Shown here in pieces: positions 643-21,985 of a DNA stretch of 37,642 nucleotides. Source of the stretch: a virus (Duplodnaviria; Caudoviricetes). Below the pieces are notes generated by a model. That model searched no databases. It worked only from the letters and a program-made list of their open reading frames with translations, and had not been told where the DNA came from. Within the stretch, counting starts at the first letter, position 1, and each line of letters starts with the position of its first letter. The stretch is from positions 1 to 37,642 of IMG/VR virus record IMGVR_UViG_3300031953_000063; one strand, given 5' to 3'. The position numbers and the translations under genes are program-made.

Positions 643-681
643 ATCAATAAATAGTTTATATTTGATAAACAATTTATTGAT
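643..681 (+). promoter_or_regulatory. Bacteroidota -7 promoter element (TATATTTG, 657-664) inside a 17-bp inverted repeat (putative double operator)
   Basis: ATCAATAAATAGTTTAT-atttg-ATAAACAATTTATTGAT, one mismatch; matches the TAnnTTTG consensus. Confidence 0.65.
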
Positions 682-785: not shown

Positions 786-935
786 ATGAAAAAATTTAAA
801 ACGGCTTTTATAGCCTTTGCAATGATCTGCGCATTCGCAGCTTCGTGCACACCAGAAAAAATTACAGGAGATGGACAACAAGACGACGTTGACAAAACAA
901 AAATTGAGCGACCCGGTAACCAGGGCAACGGTTAG
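786..935 (+). CDS. Small secreted lipopeptide, 49 aa (not in ORF track)
   Basis: MKKFKTAFIAFAMICAFAAS-C-TPEKITGDGQQDDVDKTKIERPGNQGNG; basic N-terminus, hydrophobic core, lipobox AASC (Cys21); preceded by an AT-rich leader and promoter. Confidence 0.8.
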   Translation: MKKFKTAFIAFAMICAFAASCTPEKITGDGQQDDVDKTKIERPGNQGNG

Positions 936-1362
936 AATATTCGCTTCGCTATTAATTATCTTATCTGCGATTATGCTATTCGCAGATAAGATTTTTTATT
1001 TCAACTTCTCTAACACCCACGGCTTTGCAGACTCGCAAACCTTTATTTGGGTACTAACACAATCACTTTCGCCATTAATTATCGTTTTAGGTGCTTTAAT
1101 GCGTCCTTACAAAATAACTTACCTGGTACCGGTGTACTATTACACCATCCAACTCTACTGGATATTCGACCCACAACTTACACTAGACGACTCACTACTG
1201 CATGTATATGCCGGTGGCGTTTGCGTTTTTGTAGCGTTGGCCAGTGTTATTATAAACAATTTCTTTAACAGATCTATACAAAATCGAGCTACCAAGATAA
1301 ACGTGCTCGAAGAAATGCTGGATCTATCAATGAATATTAAAAATAAAAGGGCAGATGAGTAA
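871..1362 (+). CDS. Four-TM inner-membrane protein, unknown function
   Basis: Four hydrophobic segments and a basic C-terminal tail; 5' end overlaps the lipopeptide gene. Confidence 0.75.
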   Translation: MDNKTTLTKQKLSDPVTRATVRIFASLLIILSAIMLFADKIFYFNFSNTHGFADSQTFIWVLTQSLSPLIIVLGALMRPYKITYLVPVYYYTIQLYWIFDPQLTLDDSLLHVYAGGVCVFVALASVIINNFFNRSIQNRATKINVLEEMLDLSMNIKNKRADE

Positions 1363-1570
1363 GTATCGTAAACTTATATTGATAGTCCGGGATGCACGCG
1401 AGCAGCTTAATGACGAATGCATAACCAAGGAAGAGGCTAATGTTATCTTAAAAAACGTTTGGAGCGAATACCAACTACTGGCAGCAGACGATAAAACCGC
1501 CTCACTTGAAGATTTAATAAAGGGATTGTTTAACCAGGAACAGAAAACAGATTTTAATTTTCTTGCTTAG
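1355..1570 (+). CDS. Small helical cytoplasmic protein
   Basis: 71-aa ORF overlapping the upstream stop by 8 nt; its 3' end overlaps the repressor 3' end. Confidence 0.6.
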   Translation: MSKYRKLILIVRDAREQLNDECITKEEANVILKNVWSEYQLLAADDKTASLEDLIKGLFNQEQKTDFNFLA

Positions 1571-2003
1571 GCAATACGGCAGATCTTTTTTTAATTTCAC
1601 TCTTCAAAGCTTCCATTTCTTCTTTTAATGAAATACGGTCCGAGACTTCTTTAATATTTTTATCCTGTGCATCTAGCCTAGGCTTTAGCAGTTTTACCAC
1701 CTCTTCAGCAAATAAACCAATCAAACCACCTTCCGTATTTTTATATGTCTGTGCAGGCTCTGCTACCTTATAAAGATTTTCTTTATACTGCAATGAAATT
1801 CCTTTAGCTTCGGGCAAATCGTGTAGAAAATAATCTAAATCTTTATCTAAAAAGCGTGCTACATCCAGTAATAAGTCAACTTTTACAGTATCACTCTTAA
1901 ACTTACTATTCAAATTTTGCGGCGTAATACCAAGCGCAGCGGCTACTTCTGCCGCTGTAATGCCAGTATCTTCAATTTTCTTCTTTAAAAAATCGCCTTT
2001 CAT
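1554..2003 (-). CDS. XRE-family HTH repressor (CI/c-like) with C-terminal coiled coil and no S24 peptidase domain
   Basis: HTH 'ITAAEVAAALGITPQNLNSKF'; divergent from Ner and the transposase. Confidence 0.85.
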   Translation of the reverse strand: MKGDFLKKKIEDTGITAAEVAAALGITPQNLNSKFKSDTVKVDLLLDVARFLDKDLDYFLHDLPEAKGISLQYKENLYKVAEPAQTYKNTEGGLIGLFAEEVVKLLKPRLDAQDKNIKEVSDRISLKEEMEALKSEIKKRSAVLPKQEN

Positions 2004-2005
2004 TA

Positions 2006-2068
2006 TAAATAATTTGTTTATTAATAAAGAATTTGTTTATATTTGTTTAATATTTCAAACCAAAACTA
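2006..2068. promoter_or_regulatory. Lysis/lysogeny switch: early promoter (+; TTTG 2013-2016, TATATTTG 2038-2045), repressor promoter (-; TAGTTTTG 2061-2068), operators 2006-2020 and 2025-2039
   Basis: TTTG-N21-TAnnTTTG consensus; near-palindromes TAAATAATTTGTTTA and TAAAGAATTTGTTTA. Confidence 0.7.
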
Positions 2069-2298
2069 TGAAAAAAGAATTGATTTTTTCTGAAATTCAG
2101 ATAAAAAAGATAAATAAAGAAGCGCTAGGCAATAAAAATGGCGTCTCTGGGGCCTATGTAGGCCAAGTGTTAAGGGGTGAAAAAGGAAAGGGCCGAACTG
2201 CTCGCGCAATTCGTGAAGACGCAAAAGCACTTTTAGGCATTCTGGGCGATCCTATTTTAGACATAGAAGTTATTGACGCAGAAATACTAACAGCATAA
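2068..2298 (+). CDS. Ner/Cro-like HTH regulator
   Basis: Likely start ATG 2068 (MKKELIF); HTH 'LGNKNGVSGAYVGQVLRG'; stop overlaps the transposase start. Confidence 0.75.
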   Translation: MKKELIFSEIQIKKINKEALGNKNGVSGAYVGQVLRGEKGKGRTARAIREDAKALLGILGDPILDIEVIDAEILTA

Positions 2299-4268
2299 TG
2301 TACGAGATCTATCAAAATACGGTATGTGTTAACGGTGGCCTCCTGTACCAAGACGACCCCCAGCCAATTATGAAAATGAGCGATTACCGCAACCTGGTTA
2401 ATCGCTACGCAAAAACCCTGCGCACAGGAGGCAATGGCCGCACCGCCTTAATAGACTTCAACAGTATTCCAGATAGATGGAAAAAAGCAATCGTTAAACA
2501 ATATGGCGATCCATTCCAAAAAGACCACACAGATTATATTACTTCCCAATTAGAGCCAGACCATAAAGCCTCAGATTATTTTGCAGCTTTTAAACTCCCC
2601 GATGGCCGTAACCTTCCCGAAAGCACCCAGCGCGAATATTTTACCAATGCGCAGATCCTTAACCTAGTTGATAAACTGGTTAGCCTGCAGCGCACCCAAC
2701 AACGTGTTTTCGGGAAAACACGGCTTACTGCCCTTTGGCAAAAATTGGCAGATGCCATTCACCTATTAGATACAGATCTGTACCCACATACCTTACCTAG
2801 CAATCCAAGATCGTTGGAGCGCAAACTAAAACAATACAAAAATAAAGGCTGTGCCGCTCTAGTTCATAAAAACTTTGGCAATGGCCACGCTGCAAAAATT
2901 GAAGGCGATGTGGCAGACTGGATACTAGCAACGTATTGCCTACCGGTTAAAATTAACATACCAGTACTACATAACCAGTATATGAAACTTCACAAAGGCA
3001 ACCAATGGCCTAGTCTTACCGAAAGTGCAATTGCAATGTGGCTAGACAAACCCGAAGTAAAACGAGTTTGGACCCTAGCACGCCACGGCAAAGATGCTTT
3101 TGTAAATCAGTTTCAGCATCACACAAAACGCGATCGCTCACGTTGGTTCCCAAATGCTTACTGGGCAGTGGATGGTACCAAACTAGATTGGGTACATATT
3201 GAAGACAACAATCTTGGTATGGCCGCAAAATTAAAGATCAACCTTATTATAGATGTGTTTTCTGAAAAGGTTCTGGGATGGTCCTATTCTGAAAGTGAAG
3301 ATCACACAGACCATTTCACATCACTTAAACACGCTTTTAAAACTTCATCTGCAAAACCTTACCTATTAACATACGATAATCAATCTGGACACAAATCCAG
3401 CCGTATGCAGGAACTTTATACTAAAGCCGTTGCCAAAGATGGTGGCACCCACCACCCGCACCGTGCATACGCAAAAAACAACCCAATAGAACAGGTATTT
3501 AACCGTCTGCAGCAGCAGTGTATAAACCAGTGGTGGTTTAACGACGGCCAAACCATTAAAGCGCGTAGTGCAGACAATCGCCCAAATATGGATTTCCTTA
3601 TGGACAATAAGGCGAAAATGCTTACCAAAGAAAAACTAGAAAAAGCGTGGGCAATTACCGTAGACCAATGGAATAACGGCATCCACCCACATTTTGAAAG
3701 CCTTACTCGTAACGATGTGTACAACCAACCCGCACCAATGTTTGAGTCTGTTAGCTTCTTAGATATGATAGACATGTTCTGGATTGCCACCCCAAAACCA
3801 ATCACTTACAAACGCGGTGGTTTACTAATGCGCCTGGCGAATAAGGAATACGAGTTTGAAGTGTACGATAACGATGGCCATATAGATAGCAATTTCCGCT
3901 CTAAATACACCGGTGCTAAGTTTACTGTAAAGTACGATCCCGAAGAAATGGACAACTACATACGCCTATACATTACCAAGCCAGACGGCAAAATGGAGTA
4001 TGTGGCAAACGCCCAACCAAAACGCGCACACGAAAGCATTCCCGCACTTATGCAACCAGGCGATAAAGCAGCGTGGTACGATGATTATGAAGTGCGTGGC
4101 GAAGAGCTGGCAACAGTAGAAAAAGATTTGCAGGCATTAAGAGCTCGCACAGGCATTACGCCAGAAAAACTAATAGAAGACCAAGACCTTCTTATTAAAA
4201 TGGGCGGCAGATTGCCCAAAGAACACCGCAACAAAGTAGAAGCAGACGATTTTTTAAGCAGATTATAA
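2298..4268 (+). CDS. Mu-like DDE transposase (MuA-like)
   Basis: 656 aa; 'WAVDGTKLD', 'IIDVFSEKVLG', 'TYDNQSGH', 'NPIEQVF' RNase H/DDE motifs. Confidence 0.92.
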   Translation: MYEIYQNTVCVNGGLLYQDDPQPIMKMSDYRNLVNRYAKTLRTGGNGRTALIDFNSIPDRWKKAIVKQYGDPFQKDHTDYITSQLEPDHKASDYFAAFKLPDGRNLPESTQREYFTNAQILNLVDKLVSLQRTQQRVFGKTRLTALWQKLADAIHLLDTDLYPHTLPSNPRSLERKLKQYKNKGCAALVHKNFGNGHAAKIEGDVADWILATYCLPVKINIPVLHNQYMKLHKGNQWPSLTESAIAMWLDKPEVKRVWTLARHGKDAFVNQFQHHTKRDRSRWFPNAYWAVDGTKLDWVHIEDNNLGMAAKLKINLIIDVFSEKVLGWSYSESEDHTDHFTSLKHAFKTSSAKPYLLTYDNQSGHKSSRMQELYTKAVAKDGGTHHPHRAYAKNNPIEQVFNRLQQQCINQWWFNDGQTIKARSADNRPNMDFLMDNKAKMLTKEKLEKAWAITVDQWNNGIHPHFESLTRNDVYNQPAPMFESVSFLDMIDMFWIATPKPITYKRGGLLMRLANKEYEFEVYDNDGHIDSNFRSKYTGAKFTVKYDPEEMDNYIRLYITKPDGKMEYVANAQPKRAHESIPALMQPGDKAAWYDDYEVRGEELATVEKDLQALRARTGITPEKLIEDQDLLIKMGGRLPKEHRNKVEADDFLSRL

Positions 4269-14242: not shown

Positions 14243-14527
14243 ATGGAAAACAATAAACACTTCACCTTCGAAGAGCTGTTAGGTAAATTTAAAAACGGCC
14301 AAGAGCTTTACGAAAAAAGCGCACTTTTCAACAGAGTAGTACGAACGCTTGCAGCTGGCCAATCACCTTATGAATTACTAGAAGAGGTAATTGTAATTGC
14401 AGATGCTATTCAAGAAAATTTCACAGAATACGCTAAAAGCGATACTAGAAATTTAAGTATCACTGTTTCTAAGGAATCTTATAACCGCCTTCTGCAGGAA
14501 GTTCCGGCACCGACGGATCTTCCCTAA
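14243..14527 (+). CDS. Hypothetical protein
   Basis: 94 aa; converges on and overlaps the minus-strand late operon by 59 nt. Confidence 0.55.
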   Translation: MENNKHFTFEELLGKFKNGQELYEKSALFNRVVRTLAAGQSPYELLEEVIVIADAIQENFTEYAKSDTRNLSITVSKESYNRLLQEVPAPTDLP

Positions 14528-15026
14528 CAATACGAACCTCGTTTGGCGTAACCTCTACCCAACTGTCCATTGCGCTCAGGTCGCGTAATTTGCACACAAA
14601 GCTTTGGCGGTATAAGTTGCCTGCGCTTCCGGTATCTACGGGCGTAAAGGCTACGCGGCGCATTTCGCTGTAGGTATTGCCTGTGGTGCCGTGAAATAAC
14701 TGGTGCGCTTTGTTGGCGTTTCTTAAAAAGTTGAGTGCATCTTCTTGGTTGTAGCTTCCGGCATAGGTATCGCTAAAGGTTTCAAAGAAGTGATAAATAT
14801 CTACTTGCACATCGCAATCCTGCGCTTTTTCGGCTGCGTCTTCGGTGTTTAAAATTCGGATAGCATAAAACCACGCGGGTGTGGGGAATGGGTGTTCCTC
14901 TTCCAAAAAGTTTACTTGGTTATGCCACAGATCCTGCCATTCCACTTCTGGAATTTTGGCGGCTACAGCTTCGCACATTTCCAAATACAATCCTGTAAAA
15001 TCTTGTTTATAGTTTTCTGTTACCAT
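14469..15026 (-). CDS. Tail completion/terminator-like protein (Gp37-like)
   Basis: 'WQDLWHNQV...PFPTPAWF'; position after gpG. Confidence 0.6.
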   Translation of the reverse strand: MVTENYKQDFTGLYLEMCEAVAAKIPEVEWQDLWHNQVNFLEEEHPFPTPAWFYAIRILNTEDAAEKAQDCDVQVDIYHFFETFSDTYAGSYNQEDALNFLRNANKAHQLFHGTTGNTYSEMRRVAFTPVDTGSAGNLYRQSFVCKLRDLSAMDSWVEVTPNEVRIVREDPSVPELPAEGGYKIP

Positions 15027-15050
15027 AACATTTGGTCGTTTATTATTTAA

Positions 15051-15563
15051 TTAAGATTTAAAGCGTTTTAAAATGGTATTTAAAAGCCATTCGTCTAGGT
15101 TACTCATTAAGGTTTCTGAGTGGCCCAAAAATTGCCGTTTTGGAATGGTTACGGTAAACATATCTTTTTTGGTAAGTGCCATATTTTTCCAAAACTGCTT
15201 TTTTGTTTTGTAGTACATATACCAAAAATACTTCCGGCTTTTTTCGGTAACGCGAATGTTTATAACGCCACCGTTGTTATGGATGTCTGCATATTCGGCA
15301 TCGCTGAAATAGATTATTTTCATTCCATTTAATTCATATTCAACGGAATTTTCAAGAAATGCACTTTTCGTCAATATTCGTCTTCCTGGATCTATATCGC
15401 CTGCTCGTTCTTCCCACTTCTGAAAGCTCTTATCAGTAAAACCTTGATTTGGAAAACTATCTTTGAAAAAATTCTTTCCAGTCACTCCTGCATAACGCAA
15501 CGCGTCATAAACGAGCTTGGCGCCCATTGCATTAAAGTCTGGTGCTTTTTCGAATTTACTCAT
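15051..15563 (-). CDS. Virion morphogenesis protein (Mu gpG-like)
   Basis: 'YADIHNNGG...IPKRQFLG'. Confidence 0.85.
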   Translation of the reverse strand: MSKFEKAPDFNAMGAKLVYDALRYAGVTGKNFFKDSFPNQGFTDKSFQKWEERAGDIDPGRRILTKSAFLENSVEYELNGMKIIYFSDAEYADIHNNGGVINIRVTEKSRKYFWYMYYKTKKQFWKNMALTKKDMFTVTIPKRQFLGHSETLMSNLDEWLLNTILKRFKS

Positions 15564-16308
15564 CTGCAGGTTTCTTCTTTTTCAGTTTGTCTAGCTGCTC
15601 TTTGTCCATTGCAAAATAGGGGTGCCCTTCCGGATTAAAAACCATTCCACTTTTGCCAACGTTGTTTTCAAACCCACGTTCCACGGTTACCTTTGGAACT
15701 CCCTTTGTGGGCGTTGCATCGCTTTGGCGAACCGAGCAACGGCAGCGCCATCCGTTTGGCGGGTAGTGGCTATCCCAAAATTTGTCGTTTATTGGTTTTA
15801 TAACACCTTCCAGTTTTTCGTGTTCGTCTCGCACGCGCTCATCGCCCACGGTTCTATATTCTAAGTTTGGAAATAGATCTGCGTCTGCTACAAATTTCTG
15901 CCATTGTTTGGCGGCTTGGCTGCTACGTTTGGCGGTTTGGTATTCGGCGGGTAGATATTTTACATTATAGGTTTCATGTAAAGCCATAACCTTTCTTCGG
16001 AAATCTGTAAAGCTTCTTATTTTGCCGTCCTCATCAACTAGCATCGAATTAAAATCTAAAAGTTCTTGGTAGCATTTTGCTGCGCTGAAGTAGTACAGAT
16101 TATTCTGAATTTCGGTTACAATGGCGTCGCCGTCTTTTTTCAGTTTATCCCAATCTTTTCCCCAACCATCTTTGGCACCTTGGTTTAATTCGGTAAAGGT
16201 TTTATCTAAAAGTTCCTGGTCTAAGTCTTCGGGCTTTAAAGTGCCTGCGTGCAATAATTTTGCAATCCGCACAATCATTTTTACCCATTTAGACAGGTCT
16301 AAAGCCAC
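15556..16308 (-). CDS. Head morphogenesis protein (MuF/SPP1 gp7-like); probably made as a portal fusion
   Basis: 'YRTVGDERVRDEH...YPPNGWRCRC'; frame is open upstream to the A10 run. Confidence 0.9.
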   Translation of the reverse strand: MALDLSKWVKMIVRIAKLLHAGTLKPEDLDQELLDKTFTELNQGAKDGWGKDWDKLKKDGDAIVTEIQNNLYYFSAAKCYQELLDFNSMLVDEDGKIRSFTDFRRKVMALHETYNVKYLPAEYQTAKRSSQAAKQWQKFVADADLFPNLEYRTVGDERVRDEHEKLEGVIKPINDKFWDSHYPPNGWRCRCSVRQSDATPTKGVPKVTVERGFENNVGKSGMVFNPEGHPYFAMDKEQLDKLKKKKPADE

Positions 16309-16373
16309 GGGCCCTTCGTCGTGTGAATGTCCGCAACCTTCGGCCGTATAAAATGCGTTAATTGCCGCCTTAT

Positions 16374-17702
16374 TTACTTTTGGACTGGATTTTTTTTTTC
16401 CACGACTGGATCTGTAGGAGCGTTTCCAAAGGGAGCTTTAAAGCCTTTTATTGTAATGCCTGTGCGTGTGCTCAGTTCTTCAATGTCTAACTCATAACCT
16501 GCCTCTGTGAGACTCACCGCGCTTTTCACGTAGTCTGCCTGCTCCATTTCGTCGCTCTCGTCCCAATCAAAGTAAAGTCCGTTTAAAGGAGCGTAAAAAC
16601 TGTTAATTTTGGGTAGCCTTGGCAACAGCTCTTTGTTAATTACATTTTGTACAAACAGTTTATCGCTTTCGTGGCGATCGTCTGCCACGCCTTGCATAAT
16701 TTTAAGACTTCCGTAGGTTCCGGCACCGTCTTTGTTTTCGGTGGTACCGTCTTGGCCTAGCACTGCTTTAGATATTTCTGAATTCATTAATTTAATAAAA
16801 TCGAAAAACAAGGTTGTGCTTCCACCAGCTGGCACGTCGCCAAGTGTAAACGTTTCGTTGCCTTGTGTAACCATAACGTGGTTATTGTGCATTTCAATAC
16901 CCATTTGTAACAGTTCCGCTTGGCGGGTTGCGTCGTAGTTATCGGTATTTATAATAATTGGTGGCACTCCATATTTGTGCAGATAGTCCAGGAATGCGCC
17001 CATTGCTTTTTTCTTTGCTAAAATGTAAGTCGCAATCTGGCTGAGCAAACCAAGATCTTCCATTTCGCCAACTTCCACATAGTAGTTTGCCAATTGCCCG
17101 GATACGTAGCTAACTCCATTTTCGCCACCTACTTCTTTTGCAATTTCTTGGCGCATTGGTAAAAGGTGACCTTTCGGAATGTCTTTACAGCGAATGAGCT
17201 CGCCATTAATATCTACATCAAAAATCTCTAGGACTTTAATACCTTCAAATTTTGTCATAACCACTGCTTCCACAAAGCTTTCAAACCAAGGGCTGTGCAG
17301 CAGTTTTTTTGCATCTTTGTTAACCTCGCCAGATTGTGTTACAAGATCGTATTTTGAACGCAGCACTCTTTTAACGCGACTTTCAATAACACTTTGCACG
17401 TGTGCGTCTAGCATTAAGTTTTCGTAAAGCTCCTGCAGAAATTGAAAGTTTGGCCTTTCGGGATCTGTGGCAGATTGCACGGCACTGTTCCAATCTTTTA
17501 TGGTTTTAGGAGTGAAAAACGTAGCGTTACCTGTAAGGCTTGCAGTAATGTTTTTACCACCACCGCCACGGTTGCCGCTTCGCGTTGCCATTTCAATACG
17601 CAGTAGATCTTCTGGCAATAGCCGAAGCACATCCTGCGAAAGTTCGCGATTGCTAATTACCTCAGTTTTTGAACGGTTTTGAAACCAGCTTTTAAGTCCC
17701 AT
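16374..17702 (-). CDS. Portal protein (Mu gp29/DUF935-like)
   Basis: 'DAHVQSVIESR', 'KYGVP', 'EISKAVLGQDGT'. Confidence 0.9.
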   Translation of the reverse strand: MGLKSWFQNRSKTEVISNRELSQDVLRLLPEDLLRIEMATRSGNRGGGGKNITASLTGNATFFTPKTIKDWNSAVQSATDPERPNFQFLQELYENLMLDAHVQSVIESRVKRVLRSKYDLVTQSGEVNKDAKKLLHSPWFESFVEAVVMTKFEGIKVLEIFDVDINGELIRCKDIPKGHLLPMRQEIAKEVGGENGVSYVSGQLANYYVEVGEMEDLGLLSQIATYILAKKKAMGAFLDYLHKYGVPPIIINTDNYDATRQAELLQMGIEMHNNHVMVTQGNETFTLGDVPAGGSTTLFFDFIKLMNSEISKAVLGQDGTTENKDGAGTYGSLKIMQGVADDRHESDKLFVQNVINKELLPRLPKINSFYAPLNGLYFDWDESDEMEQADYVKSAVSLTEAGYELDIEELSTRTGITIKGFKAPFGNAPTDPVVEKKNPVQK

Positions 17703-17708
17703 ATTTTT

Positions 17709-18137
17709 TTAAATGTAGTTATCGTTGTTAGTTGTGTTTGCCCAAATTGGCTTTGCAATTTCTTCACCTTCACCATCTTTGTACGGTGGCAGATCTGCGT
17801 AACTAAAACCACCTTGCAGTTTTTCCAGTTCTTTGATGGCCCAGTTGTAGTCTTCGCGATAATCGTCCGGCACTTTTCGCGCTGCATTCCTACGAATGAA
17901 ATCATAAAGGCACATGCGAAGCAGTATTTTTAAAATTACCTGGTTGCGGTCGTCACCTGTTTCTATAAAAACAGGATCCATATCATAACGCCCGGAAAGC
18001 TTGGAACGGATGAAAGCGATGTTTTGCTTTTCAATTGGTTCCATTATGGTCGCAATCGGGTTCTCGCTGTTTGCAGTGAGCAGTTTGCTTTGTATGTGCG
18101 GTTCAAAATCTTCCGCGGCTAAAAAGATATAGGCCAT
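17709..18137 (-). CDS. Head-tail adaptor (Mu gp36/DUF1320-like)
   Basis: 'SKLSGRYD...REDYNWAIKELEKLQGG'. Confidence 0.8.
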   Translation of the reverse strand: MAYIFLAAEDFEPHIQSKLLTANSENPIATIMEPIEKQNIAFIRSKLSGRYDMDPVFIETGDDRNQVILKILLRMCLYDFIRRNAARKVPDDYREDYNWAIKELEKLQGGFSYADLPPYKDGEGEEIAKPIWANTTNNDNYI

Positions 18138-18139
18138 AA

Positions 18140-18319
18140 TTAAAAATATTTTACTGCGGTGAATACAATTGAAAACACGGCAATTACTATTAAAATAATT
18201 TTGAAATTTAACCTTCTTTCAGCCAAAGCTTCATAATGTATTATACCTTTCCAATTGCCATCGTACTTCTGGTATGGTTCAAAAAAATAATTCAGAAAAT
18301 TTTTGATGTAATTATACAT
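18140..18319 (-). CDS. Small C-terminal-TM protein, 59 aa (not in ORF track)
   Basis: MYNYIKNFLNYFFEPYQKYDGNWKGIIHYEALAERRLNFKIILIVIAVFSIVFTAVKYF fills the TerL-gp36 gap with 2-nt spacers; AT-rich. Confidence 0.6.
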   Translation of the reverse strand: MYNYIKNFLNYFFEPYQKYDGNWKGIIHYEALAERRLNFKIILIVIAVFSIVFTAVKYF

Positions 18320-18321
18320 AA

Positions 18322-19833
18322 TTAAAAATGTGTTTCGCGTTTAATATTTGCGGTTAATGTTGTGCCACGGCTTCCGGTATATAACCAACTTGAAAGCCAT
18401 TTGATAGCTTGTTGATCTGCATCTGGTGCATCGTCGTGGGTTTTATAACCCGGTTCAATTCCTAACAGCTGTGCAATACCTTCCTGCGTGCTGTGGTGGC
18501 TTTTTTTGGCATCGTTGTAATATATTCGACCATTCTGGTAGTACGGTTGTAGGCTTAAAATACGGTCGTATTTGTGCGACGATGGCGTGTCAACTTCAAC
18601 AAGGTTTAAATAAATTCTGTGAGATTCTTCCACCTCTTTAATGGTACGCTTGATTTCGTCATTCCAAAACTGTGATTCATATTTCCAGTGCACAATAACT
18701 GTCTCTGGCAATGCCATTTGGAATGCTGCCATCCACTCCAAAGCCGCTCTAATTTTAGATTGCTTTACAAAACTGTCTATGTACCAAAAATCTTTATCCT
18801 TTAAACCCCAAACGCGGATTGCGTTAAAATCGGCAGTTTGTGTGCCAGCAAATGCAATATCCCAAAAGCCGGTTATCACTTTAAAGTGGTTTAATTTTGG
18901 CATTGGCGCCCATTGAATGTCTTCCTGCTTAAATATGGTACCTTCAATATGTGGCTGGTTGTTGTATTCGGCTTTGGCTGCTAAAACGCCAATATCTTCC
19001 TCTACAACTTTATAGTATTCGTCGTCGTACTTTTGAAACCAGGTAGGCTTGTAGGTTACAGGATCGTAGGCATTAATTTCGAACACACGCCATTTTGGGT
19101 GGCGTTCCTGTAGCAGTGTTTGTATCATTGTAGGCGCAAAGCGGTTGTTTGCATATTTAAAGCGGCGTATTGGTCCATCCATAGTTGGGATAAGATCGCG
19201 CTCCACCCATTTTGCAAGTTTTAACTGGCGTTTTGGGTTTGCAATAAGTTCTTTGGTTTCCAAATCGTCAATTACTATATAATCTGGCCTTTGGTGTTTT
19301 ACACGCAAACCACGCACGTTTTGGCCTGCGCCAAGTGCTTTGCCAATAAACCCACTTTTGGTAATAAAGAAACTCTTTTCCCACTGTCCGGTTCCAGCCT
19401 GCTCGCCAAAATCTGCAATAATACGCGGATTGCCTTCAAACTCTGCGCGAATATCTTCTAGCAGTTCGCCTGCACGGTCTTTAGAAGTGGTAACAATTGC
19501 CATGTAGTTGCATTCGCCATTTATCCACATCCAAAAAGGTGTAATTAGATCTGCCCAAACCGATTTTGCAAGTCCACGGCCCCACTGGTCAAACGATCTG
19601 TCTAAACGGTTATTTAAGGTTGCTTTAGCGCCTTTTATATGAAAGTCTGCCGCTTCGGAAGTTGCGAAATGTGGAAAATAATACTCCGCACAAAACTTAG
19701 GATCCTTTTTCGCTCTGGCAATACGCGCAGCTTTTTCGCTTGCAGTTTCATAGACGTTTATGGGTCCAGAACTGCGTGCAAATTCAAGTTTTTTGCGGTA
19801 TGCGAGTAGCGCTTTTTTATCTTCGGCCTTCAT
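18322..19833 (-). CDS. Terminase large subunit
   Basis: 'GRGLAKS', 'RPDYIVIDDLE', nuclease 'WDIA...DF', 'HDDAPDA'. Confidence 0.92.
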   Translation of the reverse strand: MKAEDKKALLAYRKKLEFARSSGPINVYETASEKAARIARAKKDPKFCAEYYFPHFATSEAADFHIKGAKATLNNRLDRSFDQWGRGLAKSVWADLITPFWMWINGECNYMAIVTTSKDRAGELLEDIRAEFEGNPRIIADFGEQAGTGQWEKSFFITKSGFIGKALGAGQNVRGLRVKHQRPDYIVIDDLETKELIANPKRQLKLAKWVERDLIPTMDGPIRRFKYANNRFAPTMIQTLLQERHPKWRVFEINAYDPVTYKPTWFQKYDDEYYKVVEEDIGVLAAKAEYNNQPHIEGTIFKQEDIQWAPMPKLNHFKVITGFWDIAFAGTQTADFNAIRVWGLKDKDFWYIDSFVKQSKIRAALEWMAAFQMALPETVIVHWKYESQFWNDEIKRTIKEVEESHRIYLNLVEVDTPSSHKYDRILSLQPYYQNGRIYYNDAKKSHHSTQEGIAQLLGIEPGYKTHDDAPDADQQAIKWLSSWLYTGSRGTTLTANIKRETHF

Positions 19834-20158
19834 TCTTTTTGATTGTATGAGGTTTATCCGTGTAACTGGCTGTTACTTTATTTTGCCCGAAATTGTAATA
19901 CAGATTTCGCACAAATGCGGTGCGGCTATCTTGGGTGCGGCCTTTTTGCAATTTTACAGGATCGCCAATTTTTACACCTGCGCCTGCGCGCATAAACTGA
20001 CTGCCAAGATTCATATAAACCTGCCGTGCCGAAATGTTTCTAAAAATGGAAATCCAGCAATGCAAAAGCACGCCACCTGGCACCAACAGAAAAAGGGTTA
20101 TAAGTCTTCGTAAAAAGATATAAATGCTATTAATCCAGTATTTAAGGGCTTTGTTCAT
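19817..20158 (-). CDS. Hypothetical protein with hydrophobic N-terminus
   Basis: Fills the gap between TerS and TerL on the coding strand. Confidence 0.55.
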   Translation of the reverse strand: MNKALKYWINSIYIFLRRLITLFLLVPGGVLLHCWISIFRNISARQVYMNLGSQFMRAGAGVKIGDPVKLQKGRTQDSRTAFVRNLYYNFGQNKVTASYTDKPHTIKKNEGRR

Positions 20159-20161
20159 ATA

Positions 20162-20653
20162 TCAATATTTGAGTGATACGCCGTTGATGTGCTCGTCTTG
20201 AAAGTCTACCAATTGCATATAAATTTTGGGGTAACGTTTTTGTAGGTCGTGGAAAATTTGATCCATCACATCCAGATAGACGGTTAATGGTATTTTTTTA
20301 TCCTGGTCTAAGTTTTCCAGCGCCTTGCTGTACATAGCCACTTCATTCGCTATTTGGTTTGCGCGTTTAGTGTATTCGGCCAGTAGTTCTTTATCGGCTG
20401 CTTTTTCGGCCTCTTTAATTTTGTCTACCAGTTCCAGGCGTTCGTCTGTAAAAACACCAATTAGCTTTTTAAGGTTATCCACCCGCTCTTTGTTGCCATT
20501 AAGTTTGGCATCCAATTGCTGTTTCCAGCCATAATTTTTACACCACTGGTTTACAGTCTTTTCCTGCACACCAACAATGCTGGCAATTTCTTTTTGATTC
20601 CTGCCTTGCAGAAACAGTGCTTTTGCCGTCGCCCGTTCTTTGTCTTTTGCCAT
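20162..20653 (-). CDS. Terminase small subunit-like HTH protein (DUF1804-like)
   Basis: Likely start ATG 20653 (MAKDKE); HTH 'QKEIASIVGVQEKTVNQW...W'. Confidence 0.8.
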   Translation of the reverse strand: MAKDKERATAKALFLQGRNQKEIASIVGVQEKTVNQWCKNYGWKQQLDAKLNGNKERVDNLKKLIGVFTDERLELVDKIKEAEKAADKELLAEYTKRANQIANEVAMYSKALENLDQDKKIPLTVYLDVMDQIFHDLQKRYPKIYMQLVDFQDEHINGVSLKY

Positions 20654-20812
20654 AGTACAAATTTGGAACAATGGCTTGGCGTAGTAAAAACTACTGTTTA
20701 TTTCACCAGACATTTACTGGTATTTTACCGCCGTAGCGCCTGTATTTTATAATGGTTTTTTTCAAAGCTTCCAAACCCGTCGCATTTTTGTTACTCGAAA
20801 CAGTACTAAACG
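20654..20812. promoter_or_regulatory. Divergent late-promoter region
   Basis: Degenerate -7 elements CAAATTTG (minus, 4 nt before the TerS ATG) and CATTTTTG (plus, upstream of the protease gene). Confidence 0.45.
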
Positions 20813-21985
20813 ATGCGTAAAACCCTCTTACAATTACCAGCCACAAAAGACAACGGTGCTTTGCTAATCACTGCAGAAGTGAAAAACAAGGTGGCCGAAC
20901 TTTCTATTGATGGTTACATACATCCTTGGGCAGACGCATCTGCTAAAAACTTGAAGAATGAAATAGCCAAACTTAAAAACGAGGGAGCTACAAGCGCACG
21001 CCTTTACATTAATAGTGAAGGCGGTGTTTGTTTCCAGGCGAATGAAATGGTTAATAACCTAGATGAAGCGTTTGGTGCTGAAAATGTAAATATTTCTGTA
21101 GGTGCTTTAGCGGCGTCTGCAGCTTCTTTTATTGTAGCAAAATATAATGTAAGAGCAATCGGCAAACGCAATAGCCAGTATATGATCCATCCACCAAAAG
21201 GCGGTTTGCACGGCACAGCCAAGCAAATTAAAAAAGAGGTGAAGCTTTTGGAAAATATGGAAGCAATGTATTTAACTGAATACGCACGTGCTTTTAATAT
21301 GACCGAAGCCGAAGTGGAAGCACTTTGGGCAGATGGCGATCACTGGATGAACGCAAAAGAGGCTTTAAAAATAGGACTTATTGCATCCATTGAAGATGAA
21401 GATGCAGAATTAACAAACCAAGCACAAATGGCGTTAGTGGCCGCCGCACGTATTACGCCACCACAAGAACCCGAAACAAATCCAAAAACCGAGAATATGA
21501 ACAAAGAAGTATTGGCAGCCAGCTTAGGATTGCCATCCACAGCAACTGAGGCGGAAATTAACGCCAAAATTGCAGACAACAAGGCTAAAGCTGAACAAGC
21601 TGTTCAACTTCAGGCCAAACTGGACCAACAGGAAACAGACGGAAAAGCCGCCAAAATTACAGCAATGCTGAATAAAGGTGAAACCGACAAAAAGTTTACT
21701 GGCGACCAGCGTGCACATTTACAAGCAATGGCAGAGGCTAACCTTGAAGCAACTGAAAAGTTTATTGAAGGTATGACGCCAATTGCAAAAATTGAAACCA
21801 AAGCCGACGGTAAAAACCCAGCAGCTTCTGGACAGGATCCAGAAACCAAAGGTTGGAAGTACGAAGACTACGCAAACGCAGGTGCGAAAGGTGCCGATTT
21901 GTTAGCGAAGTTGGAAGTAGAAGATCCAGCGGCACACAACGCTTTAATTGAAGCGGCAATGCCGGAACAAAACCCTGTAGGCTAA
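20813..21985 (+). CDS. ClpP-like prohead protease fused to a scaffold region
   Basis: 'INSEGG', 'LAASAAS', 'YMIHPP', 'DHWMNAKEALKIGL'; helical C-terminus. Confidence 0.9.
   Translation: MRKTLLQLPATKDNGALLITAEVKNKVAELSIDGYIHPWADASAKNLKNEIAKLKNEGATSARLYINSEGGVCFQANEMVNNLDEAFGAENVNISVGALAASAASFIVAKYNVRAIGKRNSQYMIHPPKGGLHGTAKQIKKEVKLLENMEAMYLTEYARAFNMTEAEVEALWADGDHWMNAKEALKIGLIASIEDEDAELTNQAQMALVAAARITPPQEPETNPKTENMNKEVLAASLGLPSTATEAEINAKIADNKAKAEQAVQLQAKLDQQETDGKAAKITAMLNKGETDKKFTGDQRAHLQAMAEANLEATEKFIEGMTPIAKIETKADGKNPAASGQDPETKGWKYEDYANAGAKGADLLAKLEVEDPAAHNALIEAAMPEQNPVG

Follow-up and report, generated by a model that had tools for sequence, protein, structure and literature searches.

A Mu-like phage carries, at its left end, overlapping genes for an exported peptide, a membrane protein with four transmembrane helices (4-TM) and a 71-aa protein, which converge on the gene for the phage repressor. 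We tentatively read this cassette, from sequence and predicted structure, as a peptide ligand, its 4-TM receptor and a small adaptor acting on the repressor, which would likely tune the decision between lysis and lysogeny. Peptide and 4-TM protein are probably ligand and receptor, because of their constant pairing, the motif repeats and exchangeable leaders of the precursors, the +1 overlap of the two genes, the fusions to an AraC domain and to the small protein, and the small protein and repressor of the mobile clade. Given such a pair, we lean towards the repressor as its output; control of lysogeny by the cassette we only infer.

The phage

The window, that is the whole stretch of DNA analysed, is a complete virus record of 37,642 bases. 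Profile scans gave matches to a Mu-type transposase, an AAA protein, the Mu portal, Mu F and gp36, and the gene order repressor, ner-like gene, transposase and AAA B protein, together with the Mu-type portal and head genes, places the phage among the Mu-like transposable phages. The ner/cro-like small gene (2068..2298, plus strand), which has weak PHROG repressor matches only, sits between the repressor and the transposase gene (2298..4268, plus strand; phrog_310, E 5e-66; rve). The left end, where the cassette lies, is a common site for accessory genes in Mu-like phages. The host family is likely Flavobacteriaceae, because every named relative of the cassette belongs to it. An ORF check bore out the four reading frames that an earlier note on this DNA had described, namely those of the peptide, the 4-TM protein, the 71-aa protein and the convergent repressor.

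Distribution of the gene family

Searched with a profile built from 17 close homologues, the 50%-identity representatives yielded 137 proteins; the profile also gave 15 genome, 4 viral and 14 metagenome loci, one of the last being the window's own record. The cassette arrangement recurs at 19 of 19 homologue loci (18 distinct) and is thus more than chance. With a broader profile (31 sequences), matches were found in 156 of 201 Flavobacteriaceae genomes and in 9 of 301 genomes of a phylum-wide sample; in the Flavobacteriaceae most copies are chromosomal, at porX-tsaE. A gene for an exported peptide lies upstream at all 62 single-domain 4-TM loci examined, 58 of these being recognized with a strict filter and four more with a looser one, so the upstream peptide that the earlier note proposed to look for at homologues is indeed there. 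The pair counts exclude four more distantly related proteins, which have two domains and no peptide.

A quick tree of the 62 single-domain 4-TM proteins splits them into clades of 30 and 32 (SH-aLRT 100). The former is chromosomal (core); the latter, which includes the window phage, is mobile or accessory, and 11 of its 32 copies sit among housekeeping genes. Where neighbours were read, core loci lie between porX-tsaE and alanine dehydrogenase, a few of them (L071, L191) with pairs in tandem; the order porX, tsaE, peptide, 4-TM, alanine dehydrogenase is seen at L039-L042, L045-L049, L054, L065-L084 and L182-L199, the peptide genes being unnamed. In Porphyromonas the gene after porX is described as a kinase of PorX (PMC13241743). 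Judged by sequence, the peptide/4-TM pair is real, conserved and without a named family, and the module, taken by the earlier note as a phage module as such, is a variant of this near-core host locus rather than phage-specific.

No tblastn match to two family members was obtained among GenBank phages, and scans of viral sequences with single or loose queries gave no matches. Full-text literature searches, judged by titles and the beginnings of abstracts and with supplements aside, returned no description of the module, and no cassette term was found in the available text of two papers on transposable Bacteroidota phages (PMC7761591, PMC12135933).

The exported peptide

The peptide gene (786..935, plus strand) is unannotated, as the earlier note had pointed out, and encodes a 49-residue precursor consisting of a lipoprotein-type signal, an acidic linker and one copy of a C-terminal motif. 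A basic N-terminus is followed by a hydrophobic core and an A-A-S-C lipobox-like box at Cys21, with 28 residues C-terminal of the cysteine. The -3 residue of a lipobox is usually aliphatic; here it is Ala. The motif, [VI]D-x-x-K-[IV]-x-R-P-G-x-Q-G, spans approximately 13 residues. The window peptide has no match above cut-off in Pfam, PHROGs or NCBIfam.

Among relatives, conservation is limited to the general character of the signal and to the motif, which occurs in one to four copies per precursor; L005-L007, L009, L010, L013, L018, L023 and L046 have two to four, L046 itself four. Prophage peptides are unlike the chromosomal peptides of their own host genomes. A lipobox-like Cys is present in 43 of the 58 peptides and missing from 15, and in L181 and L201, which come from the sample of another genus, the cassette gene order is kept and the peptide leader ends in GG (L181:1948-2100, minus strand; L201:1339-1494, plus strand), in both cases with no overlap with the 4-TM gene. 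The L181 leader scored 13.6 bits against models of bacteriocin and pheromone leaders (cut-off 15.7), and below-cut-off matches of one double-glycine-like leader were to EntF, ComC and bacteriocin leaders; the L201 leader matched none of the leader models, though it is visibly like that of L181. The window's own peptide has no leader ending in GG. Since 15 of 58 peptides lack the Cys and two more have another leader, the lipid anchor is dispensable in the family. Repeated motifs and exchangeable leaders are what one would expect of a pheromone precursor. The ligand-receptor proposal of the earlier note is thus in keeping with the conserved and repeated motif, the interchangeable leaders and the AraC fusion described below; the lipid anchor that belonged to it is not essential.

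The dispensable anchor also bears on superinfection exclusion, in which the entry of related phages would be blocked by two proteins, a small lipoprotein of the outer membrane and a protein of the inner one. The cassette does lie in the immunity region, and overlapping exclusion genes adjoin the repressor of Pseudomonas phage Fc02 in the account of that phage (PMC9936078). Most of the lipoprotein-type peptides, moreover, resemble the Bacteroidetes surface-export signal as outlined in PMC5080379, i.e., acidic residues after the Cys: 41 of 43 carry a net negative charge there, the window's own peptide being only weakly acidic. A conserved lipid anchor, however, is found in the window and not throughout the family; the family is near-core in hosts, and neither the motif repeats nor the AraC fusion would be explained, so that we consider exclusion quite improbable.

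Overlap of the peptide and 4-TM genes

The 4-TM gene (871..1362, plus strand) starts within the peptide gene, with a 65-nt overlap in the +1 frame. Of 58 pairs, 50 share this arrangement, each with the 4-TM frame at +1 (50/50), and in 49 of them an ATG for that frame lies within the peptide gene; the remaining eight pairs do not overlap. In peptide codons -16 to -9, a region not fixed by the selection of pairs, only 2 stops were observed in the +1 frame versus 22.9 expected from codon usage (z = -5.4, which overstates independence because the loci are related). The controls showed no anomaly: observed and expected stops were 64 and 66.5 for the +2 frame, 96 and 81.7 for the signal region, and 4 and 4.1 for the eight non-overlapping pairs. 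The creation of ATG codons in the +1 frame showed no significant excess (50 vs 45.6). On codon statistics, then, the +1 overlap is under selection, and the depletion of stops makes the start at 871 likely to be real. At L008 the second copy of the motif is broken in the peptide frame and the 4-TM frame is intact. More generally, at L008, L088, L094 and L095 (Gillisia/Antarcticibacterium-type) the second motif copy is decayed or truncated and the overlapping 4-TM frame is open.

A programmed frameshift fusing peptide and 4-TM protein was considered and rejected: 49 of the 50 overlapping pairs have their own ATG, eight pairs do not overlap, and the deletions corresponding to the one database "fusion" of the two (P0018) are confined to a single run. 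The runs containing the window stretch are brine metagenomes, two of which may be the source of the record. Over the covered parts of positions 1-2600, contigs of runs X4 and X5 are identical to the window; only run X3 has single-base deletions, at 856 and 992, and since these explain P0018, that protein is likely a homopolymer error.

Translational coupling would also fix the ratio of peptide to receptor, as might be wanted in an envelope-stress sensor, where a peptide tethered in the same cell is mislocalized or degraded, the 4-TM protein reads this, and the phage senses the condition of its host rather than its neighbours. The lipid anchor of 43 of 58 peptides and the position of the core locus beside the envelope regulator porX would suit this. 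Leaders that would release the peptide (Cys-free or double-glycine-like) and multi-copy precursors, however, fit a diffusible signal better, and we regard such a sensor as very improbable.

The 4-TM membrane protein

The predicted receptor is 163 aa in length. Its AlphaFold2 model (pLDDT 90.5) consists of four long helices, the last of which extends as a long C-terminal helix, and the charge bias suggests that both tails and loop 2 are inside, with the acidic loops 1 and 3 outside. Nothing above cut-off was found in Pfam, PHROGs or NCBIfam. Searches of the PDB and BFVD with the model gave no match at E 0.001, which need not mean a new fold; the best Z-score, against VIA, was 6.5 and came nearly entirely from the long C-terminal helix. 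Matches in the ESM Atlas are restricted to three unnamed Bacteroidota clusters. Conserved polar and aromatic residues (D54, W60, Y91, Q94, D107, Y113) lie mostly in the predicted outer half, and the alignment holds no conserved His, Cys or Ser-Lys set of the peptidase type.

In the mobile clade conservation is higher outside than inside (0.47/0.26), the reverse of the core clade (0.42/0.61), which suggests a new output in the former. Loci with similar motifs also tend to resemble each other on the outer face of the 4-TM protein (r 0.58), and less so on the inner face (r 0.45); within the mobile clade this preference for the outer face is found for the motif and not for the signal peptide (partial r 0.46 vs 0.05). 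The covariation of peptide and putative receptor that the earlier note proposed to test is a weak hint: a difference as large arose in 14 of 300 random column splits, and in 31 of 300 after removal of 10 close relatives.

P0072, a single sequence on a 39-kb contig, joins a 4-TM domain (E 1.4e-21) to an AraC HTH_18 domain (E 7e-12). Two tandem 4-TM domains without an upstream peptide are encoded at L043, L050, L051 and L189 and are present in P0048, P0146 and P0153, which suggests that the single-domain form may dimerize. A weak search for longer fused forms of 397-2000 aa found none.

The AraC fusion would point to a sensory role. Such a fusion is not expected of a toxin-immunity pair, in which the peptide would be a toxin of the bacteriocin-like or addiction type, the 4-TM protein would confer immunity to it, and SdpI-like signalling might come in as a side function. 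Toxin loci are patchy in distribution, unlike the single near-core copy seen here at a fixed locus in most genomes, and the sequence of the mature peptide shows a short, charged and hydrophilic chain that lacks an amphipathic or modified core. The strict coupling of the two genes, the double-glycine-like leaders of two loci and tandem arrays of different pairs (three at L071, two at L191) would nevertheless agree with toxin and immunity, as would the SdpC-SdpI-SdpR system, where one membrane protein is described as both immunity factor and receptor (PMC1626106). On balance we judge this explanation improbable and retain a ligand and its receptor as the probable roles.

The 71-aa small protein

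The gene for the 71-aa protein (1355..1570, plus strand) overlaps the 4-TM stop by 8 nt at its start. Its product is modelled as three helices, is weakly SHOCT-like and is predicted to be an adaptor. The SHOCT likeness comes from relatives, where PF22746 was matched in 2 of 11 (best E 8.5e-6) and PF09851 in 2 of 11 (best E 0.013); the window protein itself matches neither PF09851 nor PF22746. It gave nothing above cut-off in Pfam, PHROGs or NCBIfam and no fold match. Small protein and 4-TM protein are fused in P0105 (E 2e-5), P0023 (E 1e-3; missed by the larger profile) and P0104, which may be a frameshift; reversed sequences, used as controls, gave best E values of 0.03-0.2. The coupled small ORF is present at 26 of 32 mobile-clade loci and at none of the 30 core loci.

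The repressor

The repressor gene (1554..2003, minus strand) encodes 149 aa with an N-terminal HTH_3 domain and a helical C-terminal part. Its end overlaps that of the 71-aa gene by 17 nt in convergent orientation, and transcription into the repressor gene could, as a prediction, add interference. A short repressor-like ORF lies nearby at 20 of 32 mobile-clade loci, 17 of them convergent within 700 nt and three within approximately 1 kb; 12 of the 20 were recognized by a Pfam HTH match and the others by alignment, and L032 is cut off. No repressor is nearby at 11 of the 32. Wherever the repressor is present the small ORF is too (20/20), and the six mobile-clade loci without the small ORF, from three lineages, lack the repressor as well. 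The synteny of small ORF and repressor that the earlier note proposed to test therefore holds in the mobile clade (26/32 and 20/32) and fails at the 30 core loci, which have neither. Because these 30 loci and 11 of the mobile ones have no repressor, the peptide/4-TM pair works without the switch. Elements that are unrelated and repressors of different types show the same convergent arrangement. Cassette-adjacent repressors share only about 21% column identity, a value that is difficult to reconcile with a single binding mode.

A signal and receptor with an output other than the phage switch must therefore be weighed. The cassette would then be an accessory copy of a host system that alters physiology or jams the chromosomal peptide channel, and its place beside the repressor would merely be a site for accessory genes expressed in lysogens. 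On host chromosomes the pair is near-core and has neither small protein nor repressor beside it, 11 of the 32 mobile-clade copies sit among housekeeping genes, the core TACGG/CCGTA palindrome recurs (by eye) before some mobile copies (L011, L016, L020, L027), and the cassette is rare among related phages (3 of 47, from the best 80 of 267 matches). We nonetheless hold this to be unlikely: the small protein is confined to the mobile clade and accompanies the repressor in 20 of 20 cases, the convergent layout persists across unrelated elements, and the reversed conservation of the mobile 4-TM protein, outside rather than inside, suggests a new output. Action on the repressor remains our preferred reading.

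As the earlier note had stated, the repressor lacks an S24 peptidase domain, HTH_3 being all that the domain scan detected, and none was found in the 20 other repressor-like ORFs beside cassettes. The earlier note had argued from this absence that RecA-type induction is unlikely; as a pointer to the role of the cassette it carries little weight, since it is ordinary in the phage group. Among 82 related-transposase loci (one scan keeping the best 80 of 267 matches), 47 were distinct with a readable adjacent repressor; S24 is present in 27 of these (24 by Pfam, three by motif) and absent in 20. Within the same best 80 of 267 matches, the cassette occurs in only three of the 47 phages, all S24-less, and 17 of the 44 cassette-free relatives have a short S24-less repressor, so a missing S24 says little about the cassette. 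For the window and loci with flanking room, the association of cassette and S24 was not significant (4/20 vs 0/15, p 0.09; best 80 of 267 matches). The argument that a repressor without S24 needs a special trigger was rejected on the same 17 of 44 cassette-free relatives, and on this sequence comparison uncleavable repressors do not require the cassette as a trigger; it is an add-on. Among Bacteroidota Mu-like phages that share one transposase family (L099-L180), repressors with S24 (27) and short ones lacking it (20) are about equally common (best 80 of 267).

Upstream of the peptide gene an inverted repeat with 17-nt arms (643..681) flanks a TAnnTTTG sequence (657-664), which we take to be the Bacteroidetes -7 promoter element; the repeat is a candidate operator. 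The gap between the repressor and ner-like genes (2004..2067), i.e., the switch region, contains an 11-nt word at 2011 and 2030 and TAnnTTTG at 2038. In the whole window this word, which was chosen post hoc, is found only at 675, 1262, 2011 and 2030. An operator common to the cassette promoter and the switch region was significant in none of 17 loci (window p 0.11), and a scan for sigma-70 promoters and terminators performed at chance level. Core peptide genes have a conserved TACGG/CCGTA palindrome 130-180 nt upstream (e.g. L069, L072, L073, L074, L079, L082), with TTTTAACA direct repeats 11 nt apart followed by a TAnnTTTG element; these are candidate regulator sites.

Comparison with known systems

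Phage peptide communication, as treated in two reviews (PMC13389391, PMC11323111), is the arbitrium of SPbeta-like Bacillus phages, comprising AimP, AimR and AimX with a cytoplasmic receptor. In the present cassette, as in arbitrium, a short exported precursor is encoded close to the control of lysis and lysogeny, with a small gene and the gene of a putative receptor as neighbours. Unlike arbitrium as described there, the cassette has a Gram-negative host, its receptor candidate is a four-helix membrane protein rather than the DNA-binding AimR, there is no sign that the peptide needs re-import, and the pair occurs as a near-core locus in hosts as well. In the family scan neither the 4-TM nor the 71-aa protein matched AimR or TPR models, in agreement with the distinction drawn in the earlier note from a cytoplasmic RRNPP receptor, and the window peptide, which does have an export signal and a conserved C-terminal motif, had no AimP match. 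The repressor matches AimR over the HTH only (15.8 bits, cut-off 70), and no other sequence relation was seen. The cassette is not arbitrium.

The closest working logic is by analogy that of SdpC-SdpI-SdpR of Bacillus subtilis, described as an exported peptide, a polytopic membrane protein and a repressor held at the membrane (PMC1626106). Both have a non-catalytic polytopic membrane protein and a convergent repressor; as regards holding the repressor at the membrane, the likeness is one of gene order. In the cassette, however, peptide and membrane protein are encoded together, where the Sdp peptide in that description is encoded with processing enzymes, and there is an extra small protein and a repressor that is the phage immunity repressor; the peptide is not known to be toxic. 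The 4-TM protein had no Pfam or NCBIfam match to the SdpI family at E up to 0.01-1, and no Sdp homology was found.

Peptide pheromones paired with membrane histidine kinases are typified by agr and ComC-ComD. The exported precursor, with its double-glycine-like leader in two loci, and the putative membrane sensor domain are reminiscent of these, but the cassette has no kinase domain, response regulator or processing transporter. In vibriophage VP882, as summarized in PMC11323111, VqmA-phage is a cytoplasmic transcription-factor receptor for a small-molecule host signal, and Qtip is a 79-aa protein; a signal receptor with a small protein (79 aa in VP882, 71 aa in the cassette) directed at a phage repressor would be analogous, but the cassette encodes its own peptide, its receptor candidate is a membrane protein, and the antirepressor role is putative. 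The Mu-like phage Fc02 has overlapping exclusion genes beside the repressor and a repressor-ner switch (PMC9936078); the likeness, overlapping small genes adjoining a temperate-phage repressor, is one of description alone, and those genes are not described there as an exported peptide and a membrane protein. On the features tested the cassette thus lies outside the arbitrium/RRNPP, Sdp and kinase-peptide systems, and if our reading is right it would, by analogy, work like the first two.

Proposed mode of action

The three cassette genes are coupled by overlaps, and the precursor combines an export signal with the motif of approximately 13 residues as its conserved part. The repeats and interchangeable leaders suggest that proteolysis would release the motif. 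On the producing cell or on one next to it, the motif would then meet the 4-TM protein of the inner membrane from the periplasmic side and likely bind its outer face. The cytoplasmic helix of the 4-TM protein and the SHOCT-like protein may form one unit, which could hold the repressor at the membrane or release it in the fashion of SdpI and SdpR. As to direction, our guess, modelled on arbitrium, is that accumulated peptide would favour lysogeny. Arbitrium peptides are diversified; as a counterpoint, the motif described here is alike across unrelated elements.

We offer as a doubtful extension that there exists an unrecognized, Flavobacteriaceae-wide form of peptide signalling from which prophages have captured a private channel, adding an adaptor to the repressor and thereby gaining membrane-sensed, phage-to-phage communication in a Gram-negative host. 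The main text of a 2026 review on phage communication contains none of the terms Gram-negative, Bacteroid or Flavobact. If true, membrane-sensed peptide communication of phages would extend to the Bacteroidota, a major marine Gram-negative group. Quite apart from phages, this nameless pair, with matches in 156 of the 201 Flavobacteriaceae genomes searched, offers these bacteria a concrete candidate for a peptide signal. To keep two genes together by a selected overlap, in which the beginning of the partner gene is read in the +1 frame across the motif, would be unusual.

Other features of the genome

Terminase, portal and head-morphogenesis genes occupy 14469-20713 on the minus strand, and a Clp-type protease/capsid block begins at 20813, divergent from them. 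Near the left genome end, three imperfect repeats with a 12-nt period (355-402) are possibly transposase binding sites; a related repeat is present on another contig of run X4.
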